From contig CM038998.1 of the NCBI GenBank assembly GCA_017499595.2, positions 124,001-188,000 on the forward strand: DNA of 64,000 bases. The letters are read 5' to 3'. A program made the translations under genes and the position numbers. This DNA comes from Psilocybe cubensis (Eukaryota). Below are positions 1 to 58,642 of the stretch, piece after piece. Position 1 is the stretch's first letter; every line of letters starts with the position of its first letter. The notes below the pieces were generated by a model. The model was not told the origin of the DNA. It was given only the letters and a program-made list of their open reading frames with translations, and searched no databases.

Positions 1-3000
1 GATACGGTAGGGCACATTTGACGCATTGAGGACCCCGCTATTGCCTTCATGTACGTCCCAAGATGTATAAGATATCCGACCAACGCGATAACGGTTTGTA
101 TACATTGCCCGCGCGGGCACGGTTGTCACACCATACCGTAAAAATGCCCGAGTAATGTCCATCTTTAACACCACCGCACGTCGATCATCGTATGGGATGG
201 CTTCTTCTTGAAGATCTTCTTCGCTTTCCTCGTCGTCTGTCTCAGTGTCATCGTCGGCCTCAGCATTTGCGACATCGATTGTCTCTGCTTCTCCTGCGAG
301 TATGTACCGTCCTTGGGGCATCACCAACTTGCGAAAGATCGGCCAACAGTCCCGAATAGCTTGTGGACATCCTGGTCTTTGAAAAATTGCCATAAGTTTG
401 GACCTTCTGTGCCAGGAAGTCGCAATTGTTTCCTCGTACTCGCCTACTATAGATCAGTAACCATGAAAGAGCAGGCAACAGGTAAAGCAAATTACCTTGC
501 TTGTAATTTGTGGGAATTCTTTGCAGCATCCCAATCATACGTTCGAAGGGAAACGTCCACCAACCATGAACAGGCCCATATTCGATGATAAACTCCCTCA
601 TATGCATAGCCATATGATGATTAGGAACACACTGGTAGCTTGGAAACAGCCTTGAAAGCTCGGAACGGTATTGTACCATCAAATTCAGGTATTCATTGGC
701 CATAGCTGGTGATGCGACCCGGGAAGTGATGACAGATATGGCCTCAAAAAGAAGCATCGTGAGGCGCAAAAGTTCTCGACGTGTTTGGGCAGGTTTCGAA
801 TGGTCAATTCCCGACCATATTCGGATGAGGGTAACTGGGATGTAAAGTGCTGCCGCAATGCGCCATTGGTCTGATTTGAGTTTTCCACTCTTTGCGGACA
901 TCGACCAGGGTAACGACGAGACCCATGACGGTTTTACCATAGCTGCAATGTCTCGTCGGATGGATTTCATGTCTTCTGCTGTAAGTATCTTTCCCTGCTT
1001 GCCATCCACTTCTGAAGTAGCCTGGCTTGACTGTGACTGGCCGAAATTTTTAGTTGTTAGAAGAATTGAAAAATTTAACAACGTACGGATCTTTCTTTAC
1101 GCTATTCACCGCGTATTAAACTATCAGATTGATGTTGAGGTAACGACGATGCAGACGTACCCATTGAACAAGCATTTGGGCCAGATCTTCTTTCTTGACT
1201 CGCATCATACCATTTAACGTGTCCCGGCCACGATTGGTGATGGTAGAGGGTATACACCCCAGATGTTTACCAACAAAAACAAGGGCTTCTGCTGCGGTCT
1301 TCTTTGCCAACTCGTTTGCTACGTCGGCATCTTCGATTGGAAGAGGCTCTGCCAACCATTTTCTGATGATGCGTATTCCTTTTTGACCAGACTCTGAGGT
1401 TGGCAAAGGATTACTTTCATTGCCCTCAATGTTTTGTAATATAAAGCTATCGCTCGATATAGGTGTTTGTTGTTTCTTCTTCTGCTTGGGTAAATCAGAA
1501 CCGTCACCGAGAATGTGCTGAAAATGCTCTTTGATGAGTCCAAGAAAAAGGTTATGCATCGGGTCTACAACAAGGCTCATGGTTGGCCGATAATAGGGCA
1601 ATCGATGAAATTCTGACGTGCGCAATCCGGATTTGTCGAAAAGGCTTGCAGCGGCCTTTTCGGAGGGGGCTGCCTGGTATTTCCAGGCACCATCTCGACA
1701 TTCGTCATCGGTGCGCCATGTCCATTTTTCATAATCGAAGTTGTTGAATGTATGCACAGTTTTACTACACCAGCACATCGAACAGAAATATTCCTGATTG
1801 TATGAAGAAAATCCACCAGCCTTCCGTGCTGCAGGAAGATCGGCGATGATTGCAAGAAGAGCACAAAGAATAATGCGCCCCATAGCGTAAAGAGCGGTGC
1901 GCGTAAAAAAAACACCCACCCAAAACAGCAGGAAAGTGTCAACAATAGGGCGGAAGTATGGGTTTGCTGCTTCTAGACTGGGTTCATTGGGACCCGGAAT
2001 AATACCCGCGAGAAAGATGTTTTCAGGTTTATATCGAGTAGTTATGGGAAGGTTGAGGCATGTTAATGCGATAACTCCAATTGAAATCTTCTTTCCAGCC
2101 GTAAGATTACGCAAAGGATTAAAGAAATCAAAGCCGAGTGAAAATAGATAACGTCCAGTAGTTTCATTTCCGGATACACCGAAAAATTTCTTATCGCATC
2201 CCTTGAAGTTACGGATGCTGGAAGACTGAAAAATATCGTCCATGCGCCCATTTTCTTGAACAGGTTCGAACGTTTTCTTCCAAGCACCGTCCATTGCTTC
2301 CTCGTATCCTCGACGCGATAACATGCCACCAAGCCAGTCCTGGAAATCGAATGATAGGAAGGGTTTGATGGGTACATTAATGGTCTTATTGCTGTATCTC
2401 TTTGGCAGGACAAGAAGTTCCCCACAACGATTACCGAACTTCCGGGCATTGCATCGTTCGCGATAGGTAGAAATATCGTCCTCTAGGGTTGGCTTGTAGA
2501 TTTCATTGCACTTTGGACAAGCGGCATACACGATGAACTTCGAATCAATGTCAAAACGCTTGATTGCCGCTCGAACGTCTAGAGGAAACGAACGAAGAAC
2601 TTGCTCGAGCCAACGAGGAAGGATTTTGTCGACAAAGATAGCCTCTCCCGTTCTTTGAGCGATATATTCGCACATGGAAAAGACAAAATAGCATCCACGT
2701 CGAGGAAACCTCAATATAGCGTAGCAAGAAACAACCATAAGGTTGATCATCTGCATCGCGTCAATTATCCATGGGGGTAGCCAAGGCATACTGTATGCAT
2801 AGGGAAGGAAGGGAAGGAAGTGGTGCCCTAGGGTCGATAGTTGATAAATAGTTCATCGAATACAAAGTGAAAAATAAACATGCTCGCTCACTTGAATCGT
2901 ATAAATTAGGTACGCTATCCTGAATAGAAACTCGCTGGCGAGATCTCTTCGTTTGCCTCTCCTTCCATGTTGCCTCTACACGGTCTACATCTTCATTAAG

Positions 3001-3555
3001 TCGCTCGATATTTTGGTGTGCATCATGTCGCAAAGATTTGATCGAGGCTTCCTTGCGCAAAGGACCGGATTTCGTAAAGTCTAAATCTCTCGATGCGTTG
3101 GAATTAAGAGCTCGTACTTCATGGCAAAGTTGAATTGCCTTATCAATTTCCCCATTGCTGAAATATTTCTCTCCTGAGATGTCAATGGTGTTGATTTGTT
3201 GGGCACGAAGTCTGGTATTGTCTAGAATATCTGCAATCAGAGCCACGATTTTTTTCTTCTGTTCGTGCTTGTACTGCACTTCCTTTTCCTTGATCGTCTC
3301 GGTGTCCGGGTCCTGAACAGATAAAAGTTGCATTGCTTTCTCCAAGGTGGTTTCGACCTTCTCCATGGCCCTTTGCTGCTCAAGGATCGCCCGTGATTCA
3401 AGATTCCTCTTCATCTGACCCACGCTTTCCTCGTGTTGGTGCTTTTTATATGTAGATGGCGACAATTGAACACCTGGCTGTCCTGTGACAGGATCGCGTT
3501 TCGCGCCGCACCCATGCACAGTGCACAGGCAAAACTTGGCTTTCCAAACCGGCAT
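1..3555 (-). CDS. CACTA/EnSpm-family (Tnp2/Transposase_21-like) transposase, multi-exon, 3' end runs off the window
   Basis: ORFs 2761-3555, 1116-2789 and 260-1081 joined by introns. Motifs FSLGFDFFNP, SIGVIALTCLNLP..RYKPENIFLAGIIPGPNEP, DLPAARK, DPMHNLFLG, LKSDQWR, PNHHMAMH..YGPVHGWWTFPFERMIGMLQ are typical of CMC transposases; the frame continues to base 1 (..HEGNS..). Confidence 0.9.
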
Positions 3556-3847
3556 AGGTCTGTCGAATCAACCAGAATATCGATATCAATGTGGTAACGG
3601 TTAAGCAATGATAAGAGAAATTTTACCACATGAGAAATTATTATGCGATCACGCAGCTGCAGCTGCAGCGGAGGCAATGACCCGGAGGAACTCGATAAGG
3701 TGATGTCGCCGAAACGCCGAGGCATAACAAAGGGACTGAGCGATGAAAGACTAGCGTTTTCTTTTAAAGCGCTTGTTCAGGAACTTTCTTCATTACCCTC
3801 ACCTTCCAAACACCCAGCACAACTGAGTCTAGTCGTCCAACTAAACT

Positions 3848-5407
3848 ATGTCTCAACCTTCCAGGAGTCGTAGTAACAGCAAATCATCCGTAACAGGGGC
3901 TACCCCAATATATACCGCGATGCTTTCCCGCGAACACTATATAAAGGCTGTTAGCGCGAGATCAAGAAAGAACGCAGGGGTAAGTTGTCTAAGGATTGAT
4001 TGAGGCGCATTTTTCAATGATACATTACCTTCTGTTAGAAGTCTGCTTCGAGGCAACGCCGGTCTCCTGAAGCAGGGGACGCTAGCATGGTGGCAGGGCC
4101 ATCGAGATTCCAGGAAGTTGATGATGACGACATGGACCAATCCTTTGAATCCAATTCAACTGCGTTAGTCACCAACACCTTGACGTCCAACAAAACCCAG
4201 GCTGCGGTGCGCTTGAGTATAATGATTTATGTATTTCAATCTGACAGTACATACTTTCACCAGGGGAGTATTCAAAGGGCCTACACGGCCCCAATGGTCT
4301 CGTCCTTTGCCGAGAACCGTGAGGTTTCCACCGAAGGTCCATCGACAGAGATTGCGAATGTGTCGGTGGATGCTGGGAGAGACAATCTTATGACCAGACG
4401 TCCTCCTATACAGGTGGCCAACGTGAATGCTATATTAGCCATACTCCCAGGCCGGAATGAATTGTTTCCCGCCGTTCAACATAACCGATCTATTGCCAAT
4501 GGATCGTATGCAGCATCCACCAATGTCCAGAATGATCGAGGCATAACCAATCAACAAAGCGGAGTGGATGCTGGGATAGACCAAGTGATCATTAGTCAAG
4601 TACGCCACGATCATACGCCGTCGACTTTAGCACTAATCAACTACTTTCGATGAACAGGATGAATATGACAGGCTGAAGTCCACTTCAAATGCTGCAAGGT
4701 TGAGAAGTGATGATATAATAGCGACCGTAAGAATAATGAAATGATTCATAAGGAGGCGACTTACATCTGCATCCATTTTCCAGGTTAGAGAAGTTCAAGC
4801 CGACAGGGAGCGCATTGCCGCCCTTGAGCGAGGTCTAACCGAGCAGGGAGAGACGTTTAAATGGGTTAGTTTGGTTTCTTCCCTCACATAACCTTATGAC
4901 GTTTATCCGAGACCGTCACACTTTTTAAACAATTATATTATAGGAAATTGACAAAGCGAGCAAGATGTATACTGAGCTCTTGAAGGAGAAGGTGGCCCAG
5001 GAAAACCTGTACCTTGAAACGAAGAGGGTAAATTTACAATATGACCGATATCGATAATGTTAATGACAAATTTAAATAGGAAAATGACAGGTTGAAGGAG
5101 CTGGAAGAGACAGTACTTGGATTCGCAAAATGCACAATTTGCTATGAATTTATGGAGCAAATTTGCGTGTAAGCCTTTTCGAGAACTGTGTTTACAGATC
5201 AAAGTGACCTCAGAACATTATCACAGCTTTGCTTGTGGTCATGTTTGCTGCAACGATTGCAGGACAAAGCTCGAGTTATTTGACACACTGAGGTGCTGCT
5301 TTGTATGCCGCACATTTGTTCCAGATGAACAACCCCTCTCGCGTTACCATCCCCTCAGCCAGATTCTGTCCAATGTAAAGGATAAGGCTAATGCAGAGGG
5401 TGTTTAG
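3848..5407 (+). CDS. Multi-exon coiled-coil protein with C-terminal C3HC4 RING finger (putative E3 ligase), divergent from the transposase
   Basis: ATG 3848 (MSQPSRSRS..) followed by a GTAAGT donor. The last exons splice to CTICYEFMEQICV-FACGHVCCNDC..CCFVCR, giving C-x2-C..C-x-H-x2-C-x2-C..C-x2-C. Confidence 0.75.
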
Positions 5408-5551: not shown

Positions 5552-8500
5552 TCACAGTATCTTTTTCTTGTACTGGTCTTTTAACTGAGTCATAACATTG
5601 GAGTTGAGGTCTCTGTCTTTCTTGGACTCGGGAACTGAACACAGGAAATCCGTGCTGAGTATAAATCGCTCGCCAGTTAAAACGTCTACACGATCTTTAG
5701 ATCGGGTGACTACAGCGACCAAGACAGTTGGATTATCCGAGGTGCCTTCATGATGAATGCGACGAACGAATTTCCCGCAATGTTCCCCCTTGATAACCAC
5801 TAGAGGCCCATTGTCATGTATTCGATTTGCATACTTCGGAGTGACCCAAGCGGGGTCCACCATAGTCCATGAACTGTACTTTTTGCACCTGAGTACGAGG
5901 TTGTTTGCATCCCAAACCGTTGAGGCGACTAATGTTTTATTGCTGAACTGTCCGCCGTTGACTACCACATTCAGGCTGATGTCCACCAGTTTGGGGTTTA
6001 AGAGAACATGTTCGCACACAGAAGAGGAAGTCGTATGACAGTTTGTTTCAGATGAGGAGGAAACAGATGTAGAGACGTCTGATAACGCAAGACTTGTTGG
6101 CGAATGAGCAGTTGGGTCAGGTGTCCTTGAGGAGGGGTCCCAAGCTGGAGTGATAGATTGCGGTGTACCGATGGGTGTCCTTGAGGAAGGATCCCAGGCT
6201 GGAGTTGCAGTGGGTTCTGAGTACATCGGTGTGCCGCTCGCTGACGCAATCGTTTGCGGTACGCCAGGGAGAACGCGGACGTGCTTCATGGAAGACTTAG
6301 GTATAGGACGGAAAAATTTTGGCCCAGGATCAAGGAAAAGAACGAGCTCATTGAACGTCCTTGCGTACAAGTTAGACAGAGGGTACATGCAATGACAACA
6401 CACTTACAAAAGTTCGACGACATCGTCATAGTCCACAACGATTGTTTGGAACGGTGCAAAGGGATTAAAACGGGTGAGTTGAATAACGAGCTGCAGTCCG
6501 GCGTTGTCTGTATGATGAAGGACGTCTTTGATTCGTCCAGTCTCACCCTTGCGTGGGTGAAGATGCTTCTGTATAATGACCTCTAAACCAGTCCATGGGT
6601 GTCTTAAAAACTTGGTGTGGACTGGGTCTGACTCCGACAATAATGTCACATCGACAAGAGGTAGGGGCTCAGTAAATGAAGTGTCCAAGAGATTGACGTG
6701 TACCGCAAAATGCTGTTGAAAGGTATAGCCACGTTAAGAGAAAAACCGGTGAATATGTCAAGCTGCAAATTTACTCACTTCCACAATCTCAACCTTGTTA
6801 TCATCTCCTACCCCAGAATTAAACTGGTTAGATGCTGCTGTTGTACTGACCACAGCGCCCTGGTTGTACGACTCCTGAGCTGCTGTTGGTTTTCCTACTC
6901 CTGTGACACACGAACTCCCTCCCGGCATCGACATTTCTTCTTCATCTAACGTTGCTGCTGATTCATCCAAAGTTAGAGCGATATCCGAATGCACCATTAT
7001 ACCCCCTGGCATCATTTGCGCTTCTACCGCCGTCCCCAGATCTGTCTCCGCCGAACCTTTTCTCAGATCATCGTTCCCTGTCGGCACGGGATATTGTTCT
7101 TTTCCGTTGGTGGGCGTCGAAGATGTTTCAGCATTTGTTTCCACAATGGAAATGCGACCATGCACCGAACTTTTCGTTATTAGTGCATGGTCTCCATGGA
7201 TTCCAACGACCCAACCTCTGTGATCGAAATAGGGGCCGCTCACAACTCGAACGAATTGCCCGATTTTTGGTGACTTGAGAATGTCTAGCCATGTTCCCCT
7301 AACACTGTAGCGGATTTCACGTTCACCTTCGATTGTTGATTGTTCTGCTTCAACGTCGTATGTGTCCAGCTTTTTCAGCACTGCAGGTTCCCACTTTGCA
7401 GACCGATTCGCAACGTCGGGTGTACGAAAAAGAACCTCCTCTTCCAGTCCTAAGCACCATTCCCGAGGACGTGGCATACGCGCTCGCATTATGTCGGGAT
7501 GATTGGTGCTCCTAAACATGGAGAAGTGGGAATACGGAATATCCATGACGGAATTTGCGATGGAGGTATAGTCGAAATCCTTTTCCAACAGTCCATGGTC
7601 AAACTTGAGAAGTCCAAGCGTGTATGATCCATCCGCATTGCGAATAATGGGAGTAGAAATGAGTTTGCGGGCTTCTTCAGGGTCGAAAAGTTTTGCTGGG
7701 GGTACTAGTACCGATGACTTTCTCTTTTGTGACTTTGCAGATTGCGAATTTAGCCGAGGAATGAGAAGAACCTGAGCGCCCCAGGAAAAAGTCGCTGAAA
7801 TCAGTCCAACGTCTCCTTTGTATATGCCTTTCTTAACCAAAACCCAGGTCCCAACCTCAAAATCCTTCTTGACATCCCTCATCGTAAGAAGTTCGTGCTG
7901 ATGGTTCCGATCCACTATTTCGCGCTTGACTCCAAGGTGGTTACGAAGGATTCCGGGCGTGGACAAGAGCAGATTCACGAGGGCTGGATCCATGATACCT
8001 TCAACGTAGATACTTCCGCGTATAGAGCCGCGAGTAAATGCGGAACGAATATGGTGGATCTCCCTTGCGGTCTGGAGAAGGGATAGGACAGCTGCATCCT
8101 CAGAGCCGATCTGCAAAAGTTGATAGAAAAATAATCAAGGGATAGGTATTCAGACTTACCCGACATCCAACCCTCCAGAGAGGATAGTCATTCTCAAGCG
8201 GAAGACGCGCAATCTTCTCCTGGAGCATGGTTATCCTATCTTCCTCCTCCAAACGTATAACCGGACGTGGTTGACGAGGGCCCTTTGCTTGAGCCTCCAG
8301 GCGAGCCAGTAGTTGGTTAAATGAATCCTCCTCGCTGTCATCTTCTGGCCTATGGAACGCCATAGAGCCTATGTGATCTTCCCCGTCCACTTCCGCTCCG
8401 TCGTTAATGAAGGCATCTGTAAAGACAGTCAAATCAAGTCTATCGCAACATTCTGAACAGCTCGCCTTCAAGGTCCCGTTCTGCAGACGTAAGCTGCTCA

Positions 8501-8568
8501 TCGTCAGAAAGCTCTCCATCATCAGCTACCTGTGCCTCCGTGTCCAGAAATTGGCGGACGTTCCTCAT
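5552..8568 (-). CDS. Spt5/NusG-like transcription elongation factor homolog (divergent; acidic N-term, NGN, several KOW, TPAW repeats)
   Basis: N-term RQFLDTEAQVADD..FINDGAEVD; NGN-like LWRVGCR-IGSE..IRSAFTRGSIRGSIYVEG; KOW1 VGTWVLVKKGIYKGDVGLI..LIPRL..PPAKLFDPE; KOWs IGQFVRVVSGPYFDHRGWV and GLEVIIQKHLHPRKGETGRIKDV; CTR-like TPAWDPSSRTP x2; C-terminal KOW-like LVVIKGEHCGK. The start at 8568 is inferred. Confidence 0.8.
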
Positions 8569-9894
8569 AACCTAGGGAGAAAAAATCATGAGTATCAAGA
8601 TGCTTTGAACAGAAATCAAGCAAGCCTACCCGCTTCATCCTTTGGACTGTGTCGTTCGATGGAAATGAACAAATTTAATTAGATGATCAGTTACCACTCT
8701 GACTTAGGAATCGGAATCTATATGACGTTGGTGTGCTCAGTAAGTTTTTTTCATCTTCATTACGATGGTGATCTCATTTTCATTTTCCAACTATCCAAAT
8801 CTATCACTGAACTACGTGTAATAGTACATATTCTCGTTCCGGTTCAACGCCAATGCAGAATCCGTGGCGTATCTTACCTGGAATGACAGCCCCTGAGCAA
8901 CGAGGAGACAAAACGGTATGGTGGAGAGAAGAAGAAAAAGAGCGTGGGAATGGGTGGGGGGCTGTAGAAATGGCGCAGAAGTTCGATGCCGCAAATGCCA
9001 AAACATATCACGTGTTAATGTTCCTCGGGCATCCCGGGTGTGGATGAGGGTTCAAAACATTGAGAGCTGAGCGTCGTGCTGAAACTTATCAATGCGGAAG
9101 CGCTCATGTGAACACTTAAGCTCGTATCCTGTTAAAAATGCATGGTGAAACCTATTGTAGGGAACCTAGACGATGGAGCGACACGAAGTAGTCGGCTCGT
9201 CCTGAATGAAAAATTCATAGAAAATGGACATAATAAATTATTGACATGACCGTTGAGACAACTCATCCAGAATAAAATTTAGGGGCAGAACCAAGGGGCA
9301 CACCGTTAGTTCCATCAAAAACCAAGGCACAAGTTATGTATGGCGTACCCAGGTCTATGCTACCGCGAAACTAAGTATTTCGTTGCTTGCATATTCAAAA
9401 GTACGTACTACAGTTTACAAACAGTGGGAAATCAGCTACTCTACAAGAGTCTCAGGTGTTTGTATTTCCGAAGGAAAATAAGCACATTCAAATAATCTTG
9501 TAGTGAGCGGCGACCTTAGCATTTTGTGAGCCCAATAATTCGAGTATCAACGGTAGATATATTTGCGTGGAAAACGGTAAAAACAGACGAGGCCGTACTT
9601 CCAAGGACCCGCAGAAATAAGTTAAGGAGAACATCCTGGTGCATTGATCCAATCATGTAGATAGGGTCACCATGACACTGTAATAGAAGAAGCGCGGTTG
9701 TAAAAATACAGGGCCAAGTCCTCAATAACGAATATGTGAAACATACAAATTAGGCACCTCGTCGTCGAAGTCGACAGATTTGCGGGCCACGTTGCGGTGT
9801 CTACCACAACCTTTGCGATAATAAACATGGATAAGCTCGTACAGTTAGTGAGCAATGCAGAGCGGTGATGAAGCTCTACACATAATATGTCACT

Positions 9895-10224
9895 GAACAT
9901 CTCGTGTTCGGGAGAGTAAATTCGGCTTACAGTACGTGTAAAACAATACCTCACGGCGATTCGAGTTCGAGGGTGAAGTGGGCGCTGGGCAATGGCCGTG
10001 TTAGATTGTTGAACGAGATTTTAAACCACCCACTGGCAGGACAAAATGGGGTTGGAAAGTCACCGAAGATTATTATATCAAGTAGAGCTTGGGTTAATAA
10101 ATTTAGTATATCAATTGCAGATATTGATGAAGCGACATACTTCATAGATTGAAGAGAATTATTAGACGGGAACATCTCGCGTGTTCGAGAGAGTAAATTT
10201 GGCTTACAGTACGTGTAAAACAAT
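9895..10224. repeat. ~53 bp direct repeat (9895-9947 and 10170-10224), each containing a minus-strand GTAAGC donor-like site
   Basis: gaacatctcg(cg)tgttcgRgagagtaaattYggcttacagtacgtgtaaaacaat occurs twice. Confidence 0.85.
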
Positions 10225-12344
10225 TGAGACTGGTGCCGCTCGAATACCTGATAGAAAAAAGACGGAGCCAATCTATAGTTGCATAAGCAGGAGACTCGAC
10301 GGGAGCCATGTGCAAATCCTGTATATTCCAAGTCCCGATATCGTGAAATCCAAATTAAAACGGCAACCTGCAAAGAGGGTACCTCGCAGACCGGGTGCTT
10401 ACAGTAGGCAGCGTCGTACAAAACATAAAGTTATGGCAGCATTCAACGTTCAATTCTTGAATGTAGGTGGGTGCGTCGTTGAATAAGTGAGGTCTGTAAA
10501 GCAATGAGGCGGCACATGTGCTGTAGAATATGTTTCCTGCACTGATAGCAAAGATGATTCCTCACCTATGTTTGTGACGCTCGAATACGGGTCTGGCAGG
10601 CGAAGAGGCGGCGGGTGTGCTGTAGAAGGTGTTCTTGGCTTGTGTTTCCTGCCTGATAGTAATAAAAATACGATTCGCACCTATGTTTCTGCGTAATTCA
10701 CTATCCAAATGAATTGTAGTTCCTCCTCGTTCTGTGTCGCTCACCCGACTATTTCCTCTGCCCTTCCAAGCCGGGTCTATGTCACTTGAACTAAAATTGT
10801 ATTACTAGAGTACGCAGCTAGCTAAGTTTATGGTATTAGAGTCTACACTAAAGTGCTACTACTACAGTAAGCTCGTATGCGAACCATCTCTACGTACGAC
10901 GTGCTTCATAGGAGTGAGTGTTGAGAGAGAGGTGGAAAGGCGTCACACCGTCACAAAATCGCCATGATACAGGACAGAAGTTTGATGCCGCTGATGCCGT
11001 GCCACCAATCACGCGCATCACCAATTTGGCGACGGCATGAGCGGCATCGAACTTCTGCGGTACTTGTTGGCGTGCTGGCCATATTCTCACGCTTTCTTCT
11101 TCTTCTGTTCCAACCATGCTCATCTAGCGGGTGAAGTAGCACATATAGACCGAGTAGCGCTGCTATCCATGTAGGCAGTCTAGCGTAGTGTACCATGTAA
11201 ATAATACAAATACTACTACAGGGAGCGAAATGGGGACCGAATGATATTGTGCGTGAGGTGTAATCGAAGTGCCAACACAGATGTTAAGCACGTATGAGAT
11301 CTCTACGCTCGCCGTAAGTAACACAATTTTCTGCACAGTGTTGTATATTGGGTCAGTCATTCAGCGCAGATACAGGTCAGCGAACAAGACATCGCAAAAG
11401 TTTCGAAGCATGTCTGGTAAGTCGCAACTCCAGTGTACCCGCCGTTTGCTAACCATGCGATTAGACGCACACGATTCTCACTCAAGTCGTTCGTTTCACC
11501 ATTTCCTTCCTCTTGTTCTACACAGGTATGTTTCGTTCTGTCTACCTAATTTTCTGTAGTAACTTACATAGTATAGCCCATCTCCTATCCCGAACACCAA
11601 CGATCCGCACTATGCGCTATTAAGCAAACAAGATCCCGGACTTGTCATCGTTCGGATACCGGTGTTCCTTCCAACTCAACTCCACAACCCCTTTCGCACG
11701 GATAGGGCCCTCTGGATGGGAATAGGTTATCAGAATTGCATTGCATGATGTGTAGAGCGCGTATACGCAGACGTATGACTGGGTAAGTCTGTTTACGTCG
11801 CATGTCCCATGGCATTCGCTGATATACCTGACAGACCCTGATTCCCATATCCTCCATGCACATTGCGCAGGTGGATGACATTCGCATCCTTCTCTCTGTG
11901 CAGAACGAGCATCGCTGAGAGTGCACGATAAAATACCAATCAAGTAAGTAGCAGGTTCACTTACCTTGACGCTTCCACTGATTTGCCACATCCAAACTTT
12001 GGCTAGCAAGTCGTCGAACCTGGATGGCCAGCGAGGGGTCCATCGTCGCCCGACACGAACGCATGTACTTCAGTCGTGGAGACGTGTAGGCTCGAGCGGG
12101 AAACTGGGGCAACATTAATGTACGTGGCTGAACGAAGACGGCTGCGCACAGTACTCACTCCTCACACAGAGTTGCAACGCCCGTCCTTTGCTGTGTCCTC
12201 TCCATTCCATCGGTTGCATCAACGTTTTAGGGCAAACCATGACATATACAGAAGGTCATCATTTCGCGAGAGTACGTTTTTCGTCTTCTGTCTCTCTTTC
12301 TTAAGCACCAGGTTTTGATCTACAACTTCTCCTTAGCACGCTAT
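9982..12344 (+). repeat. Left arm of 2363 bp near-perfect inverted repeat
   Basis: Reverse complement of 18555-20917; mirrored ORFs have constant coordinate sum 30899; I noticed only one mismatch (near 10006/20893). Confidence 0.97.
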
Positions 12345-12734: not shown

Positions 12735-13186
12735 TCACCTTTTGGTCGCAAAATCAGCTAAAATTCTGTCGCGCCCCCCGAGGTTTACCAATTCTTGGTG
12801 TTTTCCTTTCTTAAAGACGACAATATCACCCTTCCAATTGCGCACTCTCCATCTCCGAATGCTTCTGTTAGGGGGGAGCCTGCAATGGTTCTTGACAAAG
12901 ACATGAAACTGCGCAATCTTCCCTCTATTCGAAATTGAAACAATAGCATCGTGGATGTATGGCTGCAGGCGTTTCCCTCCCATGACCAGGTCGAGACGGG
13001 GGCTTCTGCCGCTTGTGTTCTGAAGGGTGTGTATCGCTTTGTTCACGGGTCTTTCTGCGTGCGCGCCATAGTAGCGCGCTCTTAATGATAGCGAGGTGTC
13101 CTGGAATCCTTAAGAAGAACGTCAAGTATCCTCGCGAAATTGCTCACCCTAGTCCGTGGGATATATTTAGCAAGTGCAGAAACCAT
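12735..13186 (-). CDS. Small hypothetical protein carried in the element (at least two exons; 3' end uncertain)
   Basis: ATG 13186 MVSALAKYIPRTR, then a GTGAGC..CAG intron, then DTSLSLRARYYG..FVKNHCRLPPN..WKGDIVVFKKG..VNLGGRDRILADFA; globular-looking composition. Confidence 0.55.
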
Positions 13187-13522
13187 AGTTTGGCGGGACT
13201 GAATGACGGTAGAGGGTGAATGTGGGTGTATAGGGTTGAAAGAGAGGTTGAAGGTACAGGACCAGTGAGTTTTAACATAATCATTCACGACGCCTTTGAT
13301 ACAAAGAAGTTGTTTGGCCCAGGTTTCCATCAAAAGCACTCGAATGGGCATGCGCTCGCTTCCTTCAATCCGCGCCGGTTCGGCGCGGCGCATTTAACAA
13401 AGGAAGATACGGTGTGTTCACTTGCTCGTCCTTTGACAAAGAACCTGGCATGGCTTATACTTGATCGTCAGTATTTCCATCTTGTAAGAGCGCCACTCCC
13501 AATCATCACACCAGATCCAAGC

Positions 13523-16500
13523 ATGGACGACGCTTCGATGGAAAATCTCTCTCTGCCGGGAGCCTTCAACAGCTCCCCTACAGAGCAAATGGATATCACC
13601 TCCAGCGACGACGTCACCCGCAATCATCCAGGACCGTCCCAGACTCCCCAATCCCCTACAGAGCAAATGGATATCACCTCCAGCGACGACGACGCCCGCA
13701 ATCATCCAGGACCGTCCCAGACTCCCCAATTACAGTCCCAGATTCTCAAACCACAAGAATCGGGCAAGCGAAAAAGGAGTGATCATGAAGAGATATCGTC
13801 GAGAAAGTTAATTGCAGTCGAGCCTGAGTATCTTCAAGAACTCGAGTTCGCGGTAACTCACTTCAATTGCCGTCTCAAATTTTAACTCAACATACCGTTG
13901 TATTCAAGGTTGATGAGTTGACTAAGAAGCTCAAATCGAAGGATAAAGAAATAAAGCGCCTTCAGAGCATAGAGCCGAGCGTCAACGATTTGAAAGATGC
14001 TGAAATTCGACACCTTCGCGTTGTAGAGCAAAAGGTTGAGACTTTGATTATTGGAAAGATATATGTACTAATAGTAATGTATCATCCAGATATCCAAAGA
14101 GAAATCGGCGTCTGATGGGGCATATAAGACCTTACAATCCCAATTCGAAGACTATAAACGAGTACGTTTCCCAGGCTTCATGTTATCGTACCTGCGTTTA
14201 AGCATCGAACAGGACGTGGATCGCCAACATAAAGAAGCATCCCGTGCTAAAGAGCACGAAATGTCTGAGGTATGTAGTCTACCAAAAATCAGAAGCATCA
14301 GCCTCTCATTGCTAGCTGTTTTCAAGCTGGAAGCAAAGTTCAAACAACAAATCGAAGAACTCCAAATTCATTATGACCGTACGGTGGAGGAATTAAACAA
14401 AAAGGTTGAATCCCAGTCTCTTCAGATTTCATCTCTGGTGGAAGACAGTCTTGAAGAATCAGAAACTGCGAAAATATTGCTAAATGAACCCGATGGAGAG
14501 GGGTCCAATATCTTGGAAGAGGACACGTCCCATATCAAGGAGCTCGAGGATTCGAATATGGCGTTTACGGAGCGAATAACTGCTTATGAGGCTCAGATAG
14601 CGAAGCTCAATGCTGATTTGGAGGAGCAGAAGGCGGAGTCGTCAAAGCTAACGCGTGCTGTTCAGGAGCTTGAGGGACAGTCTGTCGATGGTATCAGCAA
14701 GCAGGAGCGTATCACGGAACTTGAAGCTCTTGTGAGGGCGAAGACGACCGAACTTGAAGAGTTGAAGCACTCTACCTCTCACGCCCAAGACCTTGAAAAT
14801 CGCATCAACGAACTACAGGCTCGTCTTGGGGAGTTCGAAAGAGAACGGGAGGGACAGTCTATTGATGGTATCAGCAAGCAGGAGCGTATCACGGAACTTG
14901 AAGCTCTTGTGAGGGCGAAGACGACCGAACTTGAAGAGTTGAAGCATTCTACCTCTCACGCCCAAGACCTTGAAAATCGCATCAACGAACTACAGGCTCG
15001 TCTCCAGGAGTCTGACAGCGAAAGGGAGAAATTGATTCAAGCACAACAATCATCAAGCCATCGCGAGAATGTTTTAGCTTCAGAACTCCAAACTGTGCGC
15101 GAAAAGCGCAGTGAGCAAATTAAAACGCTTACTGCCCAAGTGCGACTCCTCGAAAACGAATTGTCCGGAAATCAAACTGCACTTAAAGATCAAGGTCAGG
15201 AGCTGGAGAGACTGCGCGCGGCGTCTACCCAGCGTAGGACCGCTGACGAGGCTGAGATAGCGAAGCTCAATGCTGATTTGAAGGATCAGAAGGCGGAGTC
15301 GTCAAGGCTAACGCGTGCTGTTCAGGAGCTTGAGGGACAGTTAACTGATGGTATCGACAGAGAGAACCGTATCGTTCAACTCAACAACGATCTAGACGCG
15401 AAGACTGCAGAACTGAAGAAGTCCAGGGAGGAGTCAACCTCTCATGCCCAGCAACTTGAAAATCGCATTGGTGACTTACAGGCTCGTCTCCAGGAGTCTG
15501 ACAGCAAAAGGGAGAAATTGATTCAAGCACAACAATTATCAAGCCATCGCGAGAATGTTTTCGCTTCAGAACTCCAAACTGTGCGTGAAAAGCGCAGTGA
15601 GCAAATTAAAACGCTTAACGCACGAGTTCGAGACCTCGAAAAGGAGTTGGAACAAGCCGCGACCAACTCTCGCGATTCACTTAGTAAAGAACGGGAGCGA
15701 TACCAACAGATGTCCGTTGAGTTTCAAAAACAACAAGCAGCGCTATCTCAAACAACTGAAGATCTCAGTACTGTCAAGGCCGCTCTTGAAAAAGAATTTG
15801 AGGACCATGGTAATACCAAGTCACTGTTGGAGCTTTTACAAAGCGACCTTGTGGACTCTCAAAAAGCCATCTCAATTCTTAACAGTCAATTAGAGGCCAC
15901 CATGGCTGACCACATCGAATTTGGAGAGGAAGCGCAAGATTCGGACTCGGTAATTACTTCTAATTGTATCTTTTGATGTATATCTAATGAAAACTCCATA
16001 GGCGATGGACCCGGATGCACCAGAAAGTACTCCGTCGGCGACTGGAAAATCTCAAAAAGCGGCGGGCAAACGTCGTCAAATGTCGATGATGCCGGATACC
16101 ACCCTATATACGCTTGTAAGACAATTAGCGGTGTTGTAGCTTGGCCACATGTCGCTAACAATGTCCTGCAGATGAATGATATGCCCAAAGAATGGCCACA
16201 GCGTTCGCCCTTTTCAAGGTTATCAAAAAAACTACCAGGAAAGTGTTTCCAGCCAACACCGGATATCGTAGGCAGCACACCTGTCTATACGTTTGTAAGA
16301 TACCGACTACCGCCACTTTATTTGGTATAACTGAAGTCAAATATCCTTTAGATGAACCATAGGAACGGCGACCTGCAGGTAAATATGGAGCCAGAAAATT
16401 CAGCAGAACGACCCACCTTTTCAAATTTTTTTAACCAAACGGAATTTACTCCCACTCTCTCTACCTCTGCGAACCGTTCTTCGCCCGTCCGAGACGGTGA

Positions 16501-18554: not shown

Positions 18555-20917
18555 ATAGCGTGCTAAGGAGAAGTTGTAGATCAAAACCTGGTGCTTAAGA
18601 AAGAGAGACAGAAGACGAAAAACGTACTCTCGCGAAATGATGACCTTCTGTATATGTCATGGTTTGCCCTAAAACGTTGATGCAACCGATGGAATGGAGA
18701 GGACACAGCAAAGGACGGGCGTTGCAACTCTGTGTGAGGAGTGAGTACTGTGCGCAGCCGTCTTCGTTCAGCCACGTACATTAATGTTGCCCCAGTTTCC
18801 CGCTCGAGCCTACACGTCTCCACGACTGAAGTACATGCGTTCGTGTCGGGCGACGATGGACCCCTCGCTGGCCATCCAGGTTCGACGACTTGCTAGCCAA
18901 AGTTTGGATGTGGCAAATCAGTGGAAGCGTCAAGGTAAGTGAACCTGCTACTTACTTGATTGGTATTTTATCGTGCACTCTCAGCGATGCTCGTTCTGCA
19001 CAGAGAGAAGGATGCGAATGTCATCCACCTGCGCAATGTGCATGGAGGATATGGGAATCAGGGTCTGTCAGGTATATCAGCGAATGCCATGGGACATGCG
19101 ACGTAAACAGACTTACCCAGTCATACGTCTGCGTATACGCGCTCTACACATCATGCAATGCAATTCTGATAACCTATTCCCATCCAGAGGGCCCTATCCG
19201 TGCGAAAGGGGTTGTGGAGTTGAGTTGGAAGGAACACCGGTATCCGAACGATGACAAGTCCGGGATCTTGTTTGCTTAATAGCGCATAGTGCGGATCGTT
19301 GGTGTTCGGGATAGGAGATGGGCTATACTATGTAAGTTACTACAGAAAATTAGGTAGACAGAACGAAACATACCTGTGTAGAACAAGAGGAAGGAAATGG
19401 TGAAACGAACGACTTGAGTGAGAATCGTGTGCGTCTAATCGCATGGTTAGCAAACGGCGGGTACACTGGAGTTGCGACTTACCAGACATGCTTCGAAACT
19501 TTTGCGATGTCTTGTTCGCTGACCTGTATCTGCGCTGAATGACTGACCCAATATACAACACTGTGCAGAAAATTGTGTTACTTACGGCGAGCGTAGAGAT
19601 CTCATACGTGCTTAACATCTGTGTTGGCACTTCGATTACACCTCACGCACAATATCATTCGGTCCCCATTTCGCTCCCTGTAGTAGTATTTGTATTATTT
19701 ACATGGTACACTACGCTAGACTGCCTACATGGATAGCAGCGCTACTCGGTCTATATGTGCTACTTCACCCGCTAGATGAGCATGGTTGGAACAGAAGAAG
19801 AAGAAAGCGTGAGAATATGGCCAGCACGCCAACAAGTACCGCAGAAGTTCGATGCCGCTCATGCCGTCGCCAAATTGGTGATGCGCGTGATTGGTGGCAC
19901 GGCATCAGCGGCATCAAACTTCTGTCCTGTATCATGGCGATTTTGTGACGGTGTGACGCCTTTCCACCTCTCTCTCAACACTCACTCCTATGAAGCACGT
20001 CGTACGTAGAGATGGTTCGCATACGAGCTTACTGTAGTAGTAGCACTTTAGTGTAGACTCTAATACCATAAACTTAGCTAGCTGCGTACTCTAGTAATAC
20101 AATTTTAGTTCAAGTGACATAGACCCGGCTTGGAAGGGCAGAGGAAATAGTCGGGTGAGCGACACAGAACGAGGAGGAACTACAATTCATTTGGATAGTG
20201 AATTACGCAGAAACATAGGTGCGAATCGTATTTTTATTACTATCAGGCAGGAAACACAAGCCAAGAACACCTTCTACAGCACACCCGCCGCCTCTTCGCC
20301 TGCCAGACCCGTATTCGAGCGTCACAAACATAGGTGAGGAATCATCTTTGCTATCAGTGCAGGAAACATATTCTACAGCACATGTGCCGCCTCATTGCTT
20401 TACAGACCTCACTTATTCAACGACGCACCCACCTACATTCAAGAATTGAACGTTGAATGCTGCCATAACTTTATGTTTTGTACGACGCTGCCTACTGTAA
20501 GCACCCGGTCTGCGAGGTACCCTCTTTGCAGGTTGCCGTTTTAATTTGGATTTCACGATATCGGGACTTGGAATATACAGGATTTGCACATGGCTCCCGT
20601 CGAGTCTCCTGCTTATGCAACTATAGATTGGCTCCGTCTTTTTTCTATCAGGTATTCGAGCGGCACCAGTCTCAATTGTTTTACACGTACTGTAAGCCAA
20701 ATTTACTCTCTCGAACACGCGAGATGTTCCCGTCTAATAATTCTCTTCAATCTATGAAGTATGTCGCTTCATCAATATCTGCAATTGATATACTAAATTT
20801 ATTAACCCAAGCTCTACTTGATATAATAATCTTCGGTGACTTTCCAACCCCATTTTGTCCTGCCAGTGGGTGGTTTAAAATCTCGTTCAACAGTCTAACA
20901 CGGCCATTGCCCAGCGC
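18555..20917 (-). repeat. Right arm of 2363 bp near-perfect inverted repeat
   Basis: Mirror of 9982-12344 (e.g. ORFs 12076-12318/18581-18823 and 11620-12009/18890-19279 are identical). Confidence 0.97.
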
Positions 20918-22021
20918 ACAACCCCATACCTCGTTGTCTGCCCACTAGTCGGAGTCGGACCCGCGGAGCTTGTTGGGAGAGCGCGAAGCACCCCTCATTC
21001 TGCGCCTGAAATTCCTTCGAGATCGCTTAGTTTTGCGCCCCAGCCGCCATTGAACGCGCCTTGAGCGTTTGCTGTTCGCCGGCCAAGGATCCAAGTCCTC
21101 GTCTTGCTCGTCTTGTTCACTATTTTTTCCGTCTTCATCGTCGTTTTCGCGTCTACCATGGGTGTCACAAAATACAGCCCGCATCATTGAAATCTGTCAT
21201 CGCAAAGTTTTGTCATGATTTAATAAAATGATGTTCTAAAATACTTACTAGTTCTTTCAACTTTGCTTCGATCATTTGCTTCTGATTCTGATAGTCATTG
21301 TCATCACTGTGGTTATCGACCTGTAGGAATGATTAGTACGGATCAGCCACGAAACGATGACGATATGCTTCAGAATTACATCGTGGCCTTCCCTCGTCAC
21401 GGGCATCATGAAGTTTCTTACAGCAGGAAATATCGTACTGAGTACATATTAACCTATCGACCTTTTAAATGTTTTCTGAACAAAGATCCATCTTATCTTG
21501 TTTCTCTTTGTCGAAGAGTTATGGGAAAGGGGATAAAGATGGCATTGTCGCAGGAGCGCTTTGACATAGCAAACAATTCCAATGTCGCTCATGCAGCCAC
21601 GTAATCACGCCCTTTGGCGCCGTCATAATGACGATAAACGTTGTTATGGCGGTATGACCGACAGTGGATATTAAAACTATATATTATCCCATTGATCATT
21701 GATGATCTCCGCCAGTTGAAATCATGAAATCACCTTCCCAAAATCTCGCATTCCGGGGTAAGTGTGGGTATGTAGAAATACATGACCTTCTCTAGCTTCT
21801 ATATATCTCATTGGTAGGTCATTTTCTATGTTCAGATGGGTGTTGAGCGAATAAAGCGCTCATTTAGTTAATACCTTTGTCAAGATTGGTCAGGATATTT
21901 TGTCGCGGAGATTGCCTTTGTTCTTGCTTCTTATAAAGCGTCGTGAATCCTTGATTGCATACACCTCCATCGCAACTTACAGACTGCCCCAAACCCAGTT
22001 GTGGCACCTCTCATAGCAAAA

Positions 22022-22470: not shown

Positions 22471-22644
22471 ACTCATTTTCGGTGGATGGATCAATAACGT
22501 ATCATGAATGGAAACACTATTTTCTCTCCGCTGATAGCAAATACAGTTCTGACCTACGCTTCCGTATAATACTAGCACATGAATTGTGTCCATCATTTAA
22601 CCAATTTACATACGATACAACGCGCCGCATTTGAGGGACAGGAT

Positions 22645-23314
22645 GAAAGGCGTCACACCGTCACAAAATCGCCATGATACAGGACAGAAGTTTGATGCCG
22701 CTGATGCCGTGCCACCAATCACGCGCATCACCAATTTGGCGACGGCATGAGCGGCATCGAACTTCTGCGGTACTTGTTGGCGTGCTGGCCATATTCTCAC
22801 GCTTTCTTCTTCTTCTGTTCCAACCATGCTCATCTAGCGGGTGAAGTAGCACATATAGACCGAGTAGCGCTGCTATCCATGTAGGCAGTCTAGCGTAGTG
22901 TACCATGTAAATAATACAAATACTACTACAGGGAGCGAAATGGGGACCGAATGATATTGTGCGTGAGGTGTAATCGAAGTGCCAACACAGATGTTAAGCA
23001 CGTATGAGATCTCTACGCTCGCCGTAAGTAACACAATTTTCTGCACAGTGTTGTATATTGGGTCAGTCATTCAGCGCAGATACAGGTCAGCGAACAAGAC
23101 ATCGCAAAAGTTTCGAAGCATGTCTGGTAAGTCGCAACTCCAGTGTACCCGCCGTTTGCTAACCATGCGATTAGACGCACACGATTCTCACTCAAGTCGT
23201 TCGTTTCACCATTTCCTTCCTCTTGTTCTACACAGGTATGTTTCGTTCTGTCTACCTAATTTTCTGTAGTAACTTACATAGTATAGCCCATCTCCTATCC
23301 CGAACACTAACGAT
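22645..23314 (+). repeat. Third, partial (~670 bp) direct copy of the inverted-repeat arm (matches 10935-11604)
   Basis: Identical ORFs at offset 11710 (10951/22661, 11163/22873, 11269/22979). Confidence 0.95.
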
Positions 23315-23379
23315 TCCTACTGACATCTCTGGTTGGCTGCCACTTCACTTAGGCTACTTCTACAACTGTTTCACCTCCG

Positions 23380-39200: not shown

Positions 39201-39547
39201 GCCTCACACTTCTCGACTTGATGCGGGCAAAGTTACCCAATGCAGAACTGGCCTTTCTTTCTGCCTGTCATAGCGCAGCAGGCGACTCTCATACACCCAA
39301 CGAGAACATTCACTTATCAGCGGCGCTGCAATTCTGCGGGTTCCGAAGTGTGGTGGGAACGCTATGGGAGATGCACGACGAGGATGGCCCTACCATATCA
39401 AAAGGGTTCTATGACTACATGTTCCGGAATGGACCCATGGCTGATTTCAAGGACTCAGCAGAAGCATTGAATGTCGCTGTTCGGACAATGCGGAAGAATG
39501 GGGTTCCACTTGAAAGATGGATAATGTTTGTGCACATTGGGGCATGA
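36300..39547 (+). CDS. TPR-repeat + CHAT (caspase/HetF-like) protease
   Basis: About 11 repeats of ~44 aa (PPGHP.R..SL.NLA..L..RY..G..DDLEEAI); CHAT motifs RIWWCPT..LPIHAAG, VHFACHG (catalytic H), AFLSAC (catalytic C), GFRSVVGTLW, W..FVHIGA. Short first exon from ATG 36300 with intron 36358-36416 is inferred. Confidence 0.93.
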
Positions 39548-43179: not shown

Positions 43180-44196
43180 ATGGCACCCGAAAAATCATCT
43201 ACATATGTTATACTGTCAGTAACGCATCATTAGTACCATTGAGCTTGGACTAACCGCGACATCTTTTTCAGCGTAATGGGGTCTACTGGCGCAGGAAAAA
43301 GCACTGTAAACTTTGTGCCTGATTCAACATATTTGATTGATGAATTAAACAGTTCGCCAGTTTGTAAACGCCGTTAGCGGGAAAGCCCAAGCGACCGTAG
43401 GCCATGAAATCGACGCCTGTACAAAAAATGTTCAAGAAGTCACAATCGATGATCCAGATATATTGAAATCAATGTACCCGCAGAATGCGCGCCTACACAT
43501 CGTCGATACGCCTGGGTTTGATAGCTGCACGAAGGATGACGAGGAAAATCTCAAAACGATTGAAAAATGGCTGAAAGAATCGTAAGCTTTCACTGATCTA
43601 CTTCGATAGAGAAGTTAATTGTTTCAAGGTACGGTCTGGATGCCTTACTCGGTATCATATATCTTCAGGACATTTCCCTCGCCCGCTGTAACGGGACCGC
43701 GAAACGAAACTTGCAGATGTTTAAAAATCTCTGTGGCAAAAAAGCTCTCCGAAATGTCGTATTCGGATTGACGAAGGGAGGTCGCGTCAATGATCCAGAG
43801 CTGCTGAAGACGCGTACGGAGTCCTTCAAGCACACAGAAGGTCGCCACACAAAAGGCGAAGGGGTCGAAGCTGAAGTCTTCCATGTTCCAGATGTCAATT
43901 CCACAGAGCACTCCAGGAAGGTCGTTACACATTTGCTAACCTGCTATTGCAGGAGCATTGTTCTGCATATACAGAACGAGTTCATCCAGAAGAGAATACC
44001 TGTCCCTAACATCAAGGCAGGTCAAGAGCTTTCCATGACCATTAAACAACTTCTCGATGCCCAAAAACGATACTCACAATTCTCGACTGCAACTAACCTT
44101 GAAGAAGCTAGGCAGGCGACAAATAGCTTATCCACGCAGTTGAAGAAATTAAAAGTTCCCCTCAGCAAACGCATTCTTCGATTTTTTGGATTTTGA
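43180..44196 (+). CDS. AIG1/GIMAP-like (TRAFAC) P-loop GTPase, copy 1
   Basis: VMGSTGAGKST micro-exon 43272-43305; VGHEIDACT; IVDTPGFD; GIIYLQDIS; C-terminal coiled coil and LKVPLSKRILRFFGF. Confidence 0.9.
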
Positions 44197-44616
44197 ACTG
44201 TCGTCGAGTACTATAACTTTATTCGAATAGAAACTTTTGCTATACCCACCTAAGTAAAAGCAATCTTCCTTTTTTCCGTGCCTTGGATCTCTTCTATACA
44301 ATCAGGTTTATTACTGCCGATTTTTTCGACCTATGTTTAACCGTCTATCCTCTCAATACTGGTGTGCTCAACCACGTTGTCAGTGACATCCGATTAGATC
44401 CCACCTCACTATCGGTGAGTCTCCCCGGTCCATCCTCAATGCAATCGCGTGTCGTGACATCTTCGATACGATCTCATTGGCTTTAATTACAAGCTGCTTC
44501 ATACATATCACCCATCTATTCCATATGTTTCTGATAAAGACTCCACTTCATTGAATCCGCTCATCGAACCCTTTTCTCAACACACTTGGCCTACCTGTGC
44601 AGTGACGTCCTTGGAG

Positions 44617-46283: not shown

Positions 46284-46452
46284 AGAAATACGTTTCTGTA
46301 GGTCAGGTTGATGCACCGTTAATTTTCATTATACCGCGCTGGATGCGAGTCTATTTTGAACATGGTTCGTTGGTATAGGATATTTTGATATTCAGCATCT
46401 ATGCTTTGCGGCCTTTCTGACGTTCGGGCGCTCACGCTGAGTTTCGTGGATG

Positions 46453-58500: not shown

Positions 58501-58642
58501 ACAGATGCATCGTGTTGGAAAATTGATCGGACATAAAGGAAAGATAAACTCTGTTGCGTTTGGGAGCAATGGAAGAAGACTAGCCACTGGATCAAGCGAC
58601 AGGACTGTTCGAATATGGGATGTGACAAAGACTGGATTATAG
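55537..58642 (+). CDS. DUF2235 (Tle1-like alpha/beta-hydrolase) fused to a 7-blade WD40 domain
   Basis: [78 protein letters not shown] across exons; last exon 57752-58642 has seven GH..WD repeats. Confidence 0.88.

Follow-up and report, generated by a model that had tools for sequence, protein, structure and literature searches.

Can a eukaryotic transposon carry its own version of a core transcription elongation factor? The question is raised by a minus-strand gene in a 64,000-nt stretch of the Psilocybe cubensis genome (GenBank assembly GCA_017499595.2, contig CM038998.1, positions 124,001 to 188,000 of the forward strand), which we refer to as the window and whose numbering is used below unless a locus or protein is named. 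A sequence-only reading had described positions 5552-8568 as a transposon-encoded Spt5-like elongation factor with an acidic N-terminus, an NGN domain, several KOW motifs and two TPAWDPSSRTP repeats, strongly diverged and about 2 kb from a transposase. The explanation towards which we lean, with modest confidence, is that the window holds an intact, spliced gene for an Spt5 paralog, a member of a large mushroom family that travels with EnSpm/Transposase_21, Plavaka and KDZ transposons and is under purifying selection.

The gene and its product

The Spt5-like gene occupies 5552-8638 (-) and consists of six exons joined into a 2,817-nt frame of 938 aa with zero internal stops. Its source open reading frames (ORFs; 8100-8525, 6758-8134, 6404-6733 and 5552-6403, all on the minus strand) are separated by gaps with fungal intron signals, and the resulting introns measure 58, 49, 49, 66 and 48 nt, four of them GT-AG and one GC-AG. 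Exon 1 (8630-8638) encodes M-K-R and was taken from the public gene model P0002 (948 aa; N-terminus MKRVMRNV). The first intron (8629-8572, GTAGGC...CCCTAG) leads to exon 2 (8466-8571), read from the sequence, which contains the ATG at 8568 and encodes the first acidic motif (FLDTEAQVADD...). The coordinates originally proposed, 5552-8568, were right, with this ATG in frame and a possible three-codon first exon from 8638. The 49-nt GC-AG intron follows (8417-8465, donor GCGAGC); the junction 8465-8417 was chosen because it is the sole one giving ...RDLE/DAFINDG, as in the paralogs P0152, P0153, P0154 and P0003. Exon 3 (8160-8416) encodes the second acidic motif (DAFINDGAEVDGED) and the start of the NGN domain (DYPLWRVGC), and exon 4 (6779-8110; 444 aa, P0001) encodes NGN, the KOW1-linker, tandem KOW-like barrels and then a disordered insert. 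A further KOW-like barrel (HPWTG...KGETGRIKDV...; model strands 622-678), a block conserved in the family, comes from exon 5 (6408-6712), and exon 6 (5552-6359) supplies the repeat region and the C-terminal tandem barrels before the stop codon at 5552-5554. P0002 is 100% identical to the largest exon over 444 residues and differs from the 938-aa model by one 10-aa indel at the GC-AG junction and two substitutions, one of which is a strain difference at 6408 in a DNA run.

Is the product of this gene a genuine relative of Spt5? The predicted protein follows the Spt5 order, as had been claimed: an acidic N-terminus (D+E are 25% of the first 130 aa), NGN, KOW1-linker, KOW barrels, TPAW repeats and C-terminal barrels. 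The NGN domain (7883-8180, spanning the intron 8159-8111), which aligns with the yeast Spt5 NGN, passed the Pfam Spt5-NGN cut-off (24.7 bits against 22.4; P0002 residues 128-183), as it did in nine of ten long family members. One Pfam KOW match passed its cut-off (31.8 bits against 22.3, residues 418-443 of the full model; E 1.2e-7 on the exon-4 piece P0001), so that the presence of several KOW motifs was not borne out by sequence and was recovered by the predicted structure described below. Profile hidden Markov model (HMM) searches with Spt5 families, proposed as a check, thus gave a mixed outcome: NGN and KOW exceeded their cut-offs, Spt5_N did not in the window protein, and it reached 25.4 bits in the relative P0127. 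KOW1_SPT5, KOW5_SPT5 and the Spt5 CTD repeat family stayed below the Pfam cut-offs in the window protein, and neither KOW2, KOWx, KOW4 nor Spt5_N was detected there by Pfam.

A profile of 20 family members was searched against solved PDB structures, and 24 distinct sequences matched at E <= 0.01, all of the Spt5/NusG type. The best values were 7e-54 for Komagataella Spt5, 3e-50 for S. cerevisiae, 7e-50 for S. pombe and 6e-38 for human; Arabidopsis RDM3/KTF1 (chain 8hyj_W) followed at 1.5e-30, and archaeal Spt5 and NusG NGN structures were also matched. With yeast and S. pombe Spt5 the profile aligns from the acidic region to KOW3, and with 8qsz_Y it extends further.

The AlphaFold2 model, built on 80 relatives, has a mean predicted local distance difference test score (pLDDT) of 72.9, with 472 residues at 90 or above and values >90 over residues ~130-450. 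It predicts the NGN plus at least five KOW-like barrels, located in the KOW1-linker, in tandem at 359-446, singly at 622-678 and in tandem at 808-925. The KOW1 and linker domain (7478-7873) matched 4ytk, Spt5 KOW1-Linker1, in Foldseek (target template-modelling (TM) score 0.81, E 1.3e-6); the tandem barrels of 7175-7438 (Pfam KOW; model strands 359-446) lie in the KOW2-3 position; and the C-terminal tandem barrels (5624-5977, pLDDT ~95) resemble KOW6-KOW7 of animal Spt5 (5ohq, human DSIF; target TM 0.69, E 1.3e-3). The best 24 Foldseek matches (E 1e-19 to 3e-11) are chains from RNA polymerase II (Pol II) elongation-complex entries, including 5oik_Z, 5xon_W and 6ir9_W, which are named SPT5 in the profile search. 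With Pfam, profile and predicted structure in agreement, the predicted protein is a diverged Spt5 paralog, with a likeness far beyond chance.

Smaller features point the same way or set the protein apart. Two residues of the yeast NGN, Ser in ILSIF and Glu in YIEA, which we take to be the Spt4-contact residues S324 and E338 of yeast Spt5, are retained by the window protein and by 13 of 16 aligned family members. GW/WG dipeptides number two in the 948 aa of P0002, both within folded domains, and no GW/WG array is present. The two TPAWDPSSRTP repeats, similar to Spt5 C-terminal repeats (6120-6205, minus strand), exist in both DNA and protein, as claimed: they derive from a 32-nt direct repeat (6120-6151 / 6174-6205, 91% identical) and stand at P0002 residues 732 and 750. 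The Pfam Spt5 CTD family gave E 0.012 over this region of two units, below the cut-off, and most relatives have a single AWDP unit where the window protein has two; in eukaryotic Spt5, such repeats form a C-terminal array that Cdk9 phosphorylates. The window protein contains two copies of TPAW, the core of the fission-yeast repeat T1PAW4NSGSK; in the available text of PMC4066402, Trp4 of that repeat docks the capping guanylyltransferase and phosphorylation of Thr1 weakens the binding.

How widespread is the family? A phmmer search against 1.84 billion representatives (50% identity clusters) returned 507 proteins at E <= 1e-3, 198 at <= 1e-10 and 64 at <= 1e-30, many of them fragments of 250-350 aa. 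Every named member that was looked up belongs to the Agaricales, the genera being Psilocybe (2 species), Panaeolus (2), Pholiota, Flammula, Dendrothele and Armillaria; individual species hold several divergent paralogs, both Panaeolus species among them. The best between-species match within one genus is 41% identical, and within-species paralogs reach 73-77%. Twenty long members have a mean column identity of 21%, yet the same blocks align end to end: the acidic blocks F-L-D-x-E-A and F-I-D-D (F-L/I-D-x-E-A being nearly invariant in the 20), NGN, the KOW1 motif G-x-W-V-x-V-x-K-G-x-Y-K-G-D-V-G, LLVPR...KRK...LFDP, PRPxEW, two further KOW blocks, and at the C-terminus PAWDPxSRTP followed by NGLLVVIxGEHCGKxVRRIxH. 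The most conserved columns sit in the KOW1-linker (W223, G229, Y231, G233, D234). No fused gene models of >1944 aa were found, which is weak evidence.

By its features, the gene appears not to be the canonical SPT5 of the host. Over 216 residues the protein shares 25% identity with yeast Spt5, in line with the strong divergence noted at the outset, and the species of P0002 has at least three such genes (P0002, P0152 at 73% and P0004 at 40% identity). In canonical yeast Spt5 proteins, NGN scores 71-84 bits, Spt5_N 81-86 and KOW2/KOWx/KOW4/KOW5 39-93. Among the matches listed, all 120 canonical proteins carry eight Spt5 Pfam families, and the window protein's cluster carries two. One candidate for the canonical mushroom SPT5, P0155, was discarded: it is a yeast protein, and the 120 follow-up matches listed for it are all from Saccharomycotina.

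Linkage to transposases and selection

The neighbour that suggested a transposon is a gene of the EnSpm/CACTA tnp2 type at 1-3567 (-), cut by the window's left end and composed of the minus-strand ORFs 2761-3567, 1116-2852, 260-1096 and 1-453. Pfam Transposase_21 matches within 1116-2852 (-) at 36.2 bits (E 4.8e-9, cut-off 28.6), accompanied by weak Plavaka and DUF4218 matches. The transposase gene lies 2 kb downstream of the Spt5-like stop codon on the same strand, at the distance claimed, and both genes appear intact. A small ORF with RING-like cysteines (5096-5407 (+); zf-RING_5 E 0.037, below the cut-off) sits between them.

These data raise a key question: is this proximity accidental, or does it recur at other loci? 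Metagenome contigs were scanned with a 9-sequence alignment, which matched 152 stretches; 54 of these encode a relative, forming 39 groups at >= 95% nucleotide identity, and 14 groups have at least 3 kb of flank on at least one side. The flanks were screened through 35 ORFs by Pfam and through all six-frame ORFs >= 40 aa by an HMM built from four transposase ORFs. A transposase is present in five of the 14 groups, which is a lower bound, because the screen comprised those 35 ORFs and one home-made HMM. Downstream and on the same strand are the Transposase_21 genes of L003 (1.3e-27, at 1.3 kb) and of the L026 group (4e-22), as well as the transposase of the L027/L029 group, which is 30-36% identical to the window's and matches no Pfam family at 0.01. 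Upstream and divergent are a Plavaka gene at L005 (4.7e-13) and one with CxC2 (4.4e-31) and KDZ (1.1e-32) matches in the L033 group; KDZ and Plavaka were reportedly defined by Iyer et al. in 2014 (PNAS). Moreover, the terminal ORF of L022, which has 1.5 kb of flank, is weakly similar to the L005 Plavaka ORF (1e-7), and at L010 and L017 the contig end cuts the side on which L005 has its transposase. The non-redundant flank totals 128 kb and contains five or six transposase genes, which by rough expectation would be at least ten times the background. Thus, the proposed recurrent linkage holds, in five of 14 long-flank groups plus the window, and its restriction to CACTA elements does not, since Plavaka and KDZ transposases take part as well.

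Another important question is whether the gene lies inside a transposon or merely beside one. Positions 4-966 of L027 are the reverse complement of L029 9828-8886 at 94.5%, in contigs that otherwise overlap at 99.8%, and the element that they represent therefore has inverted repeats of at least 967 nt. The repeats, whose outer tips are cut by the contig ends, enclose three genes in the order Spt5-like, transposase and another that reads inward. They hold the Spt5-like promoter region and first exon (MHRLPPSVRRFFDLEA plus acidic run), and a copy of that exon therefore also heads the gene at the other end. At L026, a copy of the leader and first exon of the Spt5-like gene precedes the Transposase_21 gene. 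One promoter and N-terminal acidic motif may thus be common to several element genes. Enclosure by the L027/L029 repeats, together with the shared first exon, is the strongest evidence that the gene would be part of a transposon. Copies of the first exon (M-HRLPP-VR-F-DLEA plus acidic run) stand at L026 3278-3715 (+), L029 8909-9121 (-) and L027 719-877 (+).

Does the family bear the mark of function? The ratio of non-synonymous to synonymous substitution rates (dN/dS) was estimated by the Nei-Gojobori method over an exon of ~325 codons in metagenome pairs with dS 0.05-0.6, and it was 0.26-0.62 in all of them. In the DNA run X2, a second contig of lower depth covers 7476-7783 with 27 differences from the window gene and no stop. 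Over these 102 codons, a short stretch in the conserved part of the gene, 17.5 synonymous and 9.5 non-synonymous differences give a dN/dS of 0.14 (Fisher P 2e-6). The range of 0.14-0.6 departs from the value near 1 that had been named as the sign of a recent, unexpressed fragment, and, judged by these substitutions, the Spt5-like family is under purifying selection. Two putative RNA runs with the same species label gave no contig at the gene, and a putative RNA run with another organism label gave one 207-nt unspliced contig at a depth of 2.7; both results are uninformative on expression.

Several neighbouring features recur around the family or accompany the window copy. Four independent locus groups (L005 13598-13993, L010 3250-3666, L017 4499-4888 and L021 7443-7838) have a same-strand ORF of the DUF6698 type (lowest E 1e-22) downstream of the Spt5-like gene; such ORFs are absent from the window and may represent a further passenger gene of the Spt5-like loci. 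A recurrent upstream ORF family of ~390 aa (L008 1841-3016 (-), L024 1949-3073 (+), L041 3-965 (+) and L042 611-1852 (+)) matches no Pfam family, and ESM Atlas gives unnamed Basidiomycota clusters only. The window ORFs 4039-4653, 5096-5407, 12735-13109, 13220-13885 and 14078-15976 have no relatives in the metagenome loci. One of them, the upstream ORF at 12735-13109 (-), matches no Pfam family. It shares 50% identity (E 1e-28) with an N-terminal extension that, in P0154, a gene model of another Psilocybe species, is fused to the Spt5-like part and directly precedes it. The unit may thus reach as far as this ORF and, if so, is interrupted here by the 2.4-kb repeat at 9979-12344. That repeat and 18555-20920 form a perfect 2,366-nt inverted repeat (100% complementary) flanking 6.2 kb, and a partial copy at 22631-23321, 99% identical, brings the copies in the window to three; the repeat could belong to another repeat family or be an assembly effect.

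Elsewhere in the window, a 632-aa coiled-coil ORF (14078-15976 (+)) has internal repeats spaced 177 and 486 nt and weak coiled-coil Pfam matches only, and the ORF preceding it contains a near-exact 78-nt tandem repeat (13574-13729). An ORF of 1,061 aa (36362-39547 (+)) combines TPR_10 repeats (1.7e-38) with a CHAT domain (1.6e-30) and a DNA repeat of 135-nt period. Within 43269-59165, the P-loop motif GxxGxGKST occurs eight times, with duplicated blocks ~4.2 kb apart, which hints at NTPase genes arranged as a tandem family.

Possible role and competing explanations

What could such a protein do? Because the NGN, the KOW1-linker and the two presumed Spt4-contact residues are kept, it would be expected to bind Pol II at the Spt5 site, probably with host Spt4. 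One Spt5 binds per polymerase, across clamp and cleft; for Pol II, the window protein would thus be a competitor of host Spt5, probably as a dimer with host Spt4, and it may replace host Spt5 on some polymerases. Having one or two TPAW repeats in place of a long array, it might alter the recruitment of partners by the elongation complex. In the most speculative step, the element would gain processive, capped transcription of a multi-gene unit of at least 10 kb, or escape from co-transcriptional silencing. The RfaH-like role proposed at the outset, in read-through of heterochromatin or against silencing, is conjectural. The fullest form of the proposal is that EnSpm, Plavaka and KDZ transposons carry their own Spt5, which pairs with host Spt4 and displaces host Spt5 at starts marked by the shared leader, while the cassette passes between transposon lineages; we advance it tentatively and consider it doubtful.

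A number of observations weigh against the gene being transposon cargo or having such a role. The Pfam and HMM screen found no transposase in the other nine of the 14 long-flank groups, so that linked groups are not a majority. In the window, no inverted repeat pairs the surroundings of the gene with the transposase side and no terminal repeats were detected; the ends of the window element were not found, the left one being beyond the window. In X2, a 9,044-nt unitig holds the 3' end of the gene and continues towards the transposase at a depth like that of neighbouring contigs, which suggests that the window copy is not part of a recently amplified family. Spt5-like genes that are 80-87% identical in nucleotides adjoin three different transposase families, homology between loci breaks off abruptly on both sides of the gene, ~450-900 nt upstream and 50-90 nt downstream, and one intron has a GC donor. 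As to silencing, truncation of the Spt5 repeat array enhanced RNA interference (RNAi)-independent heterochromatin in S. pombe, according to the available text of PMC10659198; possession of one or two repeats thus does not by itself imply action against silencing.

Some of these observations can be read in another way. The upstream homology boundary is common to >20 loci (at coordinate ~1592 in L021), the metagenome relatives share a conserved leader, and the second X2 contig tracks the window until 9 nt past the stop codon and then diverges. Given the sharp homology ends, the three transposase families and the divergence in X2, the gene and its leader therefore behave as a moved or recombined cassette. 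They may form a unit that moves or recombines between element lineages, the alternative being nested unrelated insertions. Inverted repeats bracketing the gene as a cassette are not general, being found only at L033 (84-97 nt) among the 13 loci tested. The leader is very often a head-to-head palindrome with a spacer of 5-45 nt (L003 3393-4727, L005 8648-10444 and L033 4287-4795; also in L008, L012, L019, L039, L051 and L054), with the same spacer-side boundary across loci and an inverted arm whose length ranges from ~90 to 880 nt. Such a palindrome might act as a bidirectional promoter, consist of element ends that abut, or form a foldback.

What other explanations could account for these data? 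That the gene is the organism's ordinary essential SPT5, as the public annotation label 'Chromatin elongation factor SPT5' would have it, has practically no credibility in our view. SPT5 is normally a single essential gene, and the species of P0002 holds no fewer than three genes of this kind (73% and 40% identity). These divergent paralogs and the low Pfam scores speak equally against the earlier concern that this might be the genome's only canonical SPT5. An NGN score of only 24.7 bits and the undetected KOW2, KOWx, KOW4 and Spt5_N contrast with the canonical yeast scores, as do two Spt5 Pfam families with eight, and one or two repeats are not an array. A decaying, functionless captured copy of the host SPT5 would explain the strong divergence, the non-canonical GC donor and the many relatives that are short fragments. 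It is nevertheless improbable in view of the open 938-aa frame across six exons, the end-to-end conservation among members 25-45% identical, the dN/dS of 0.14-0.6 and the folded domains predicted with high confidence.

Harder to set aside are two explanations under which the protein functions, each of which we rate as unlikely. The gene might belong to a host family, an Spt5 paralog that the fungus recruited for specialised, perhaps silencing-related transcription, comparable to plant SPT5L/KTF1 or the meiosis-specific Spt5m of ciliates, and that lies near transposons by way of repeat-rich regions. Nine of 14 long-flank groups without a transposase and the low copy state of the window gene in the organism's DNA run agree with this, the family profile matches RDM3/KTF1 at 1.5e-30, and purifying selection fits a host function equally well. 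It accounts poorly for the inverted repeats of at least 967 nt that enclose gene and transposase in L027/L029, for the leader and first exon in common with the L026 transposase gene, for a best cross-species identity of 41% in one genus against 73-77% between within-species paralogs, for the many short fragments among database members, and for the missing GW/WG array (two dipeptides in 948 aa). Alternatively, a transposon gene could have another job, tethering the transposition machinery to Pol II or chromatin for targeting, or dampening its own element through heterochromatin. This shares the transposon linkage with the explanation that we prefer, and the acidic N-terminal motif also precedes other element genes; the enhanced heterochromatin seen with a shortened repeat array in S. 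pombe, in the text of PMC10659198 available, would suit it as well. There is no evidence of transposase contact, and the whole Spt5 architecture is conserved, beyond a Pol II-binding piece; a self-limiting or targeting role is nonetheless a live rival. We thus continue to prefer an Spt5 paralog family that travels with the three kinds of transposon.

Related systems and significance

How does this gene compare with known specialised elongation factors? With canonical Spt5, which together with Spt4 forms DSIF, the window protein shares the domain order, a profile match down to 7e-54 and the predicted fold. It differs in its ~25% identity to the yeast protein, in having most Spt5-specific Pfam models below their cut-offs and in its short repeat, and the gene is multi-copy, lineage-specific and adjoins transposases. 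In plants, SPT5L/KTF1 (RDM3) works with Pol V in RNA-directed DNA methylation and is likewise a specialised Spt5 paralog tied to transposon biology. KTF1 is, however, a host gene with a long GW/WG Argonaute-hook array, whereas the window protein has two such dipeptides and lies beside transposases. In bacteria, RfaH, LoaP and the plasmid-borne ActX are NGN-KOW paralogs that serve particular long transcription units, some on mobile DNA. RfaH-type paralogs have two domains and are recruited through a signal that the leader carries as DNA or RNA; no such signal is established here, although the metagenome relatives have a conserved leader in common. Ciliates use development-specific Spt5m/Spt4m, a second Spt5 for special, non-coding or transposon-related transcription (available text of PMC5416832 and PMC8934623). 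As presented there, the meiosis-specific Spt5m is, unlike the window gene, a host gene with its own Spt4 partner and without a mobile-element carrier.

The closest precedent for the cargo concerns a different activity. TET/JBP dioxygenase genes are carried by fungal Kyakuja, Zisupton, Plavaka and EnSpm transposons, with transfer between lineages (Kojima, PMC12730594, in the text available). The transposon lineages and the fungi are thus the same, and the cargo is again a host-like nuclear regulator; from that text, the presumed target of TET/JBP is DNA methylation, and that of the Spt5-like protein would be the polymerase. The words Spt5, KOW, NGN and elongation are absent from the available text of PMC12730594. 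In the searchable literature, including fungal-transposon papers, we found no Spt5, KOW or NGN protein in fungal transposons, although Iyer et al. 2014 or the supplements of such papers could hold a mention. Since specialised Spt5/NusG paralogs and the capture of TET/JBP genes are each known, it is the combination that appears new, and an Spt5 paralog carried by fungal transposons appears to be a new combination of known things.

These results carry a practical warning for annotators: 'SPT5' labels in mushroom genomes often mark genes of this family and not the host factor. No transcription factor other than Spt5/NusG is, to our knowledge, conserved across all domains of life, and we know of mobile DNA bringing its own core polymerase cofactor only from bacterial plasmids and islands. 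If the proposed role is true, eukaryotic mobile DNA can do so too, and an elongation complex dedicated to the element would be to eukaryotes what RfaH with its ops signal is to bacteria. The family would then offer, alongside the TET/JBP genes, an entry point to the expression and self-regulation of large DNA transposons in fungi that methylate and silence repeats.

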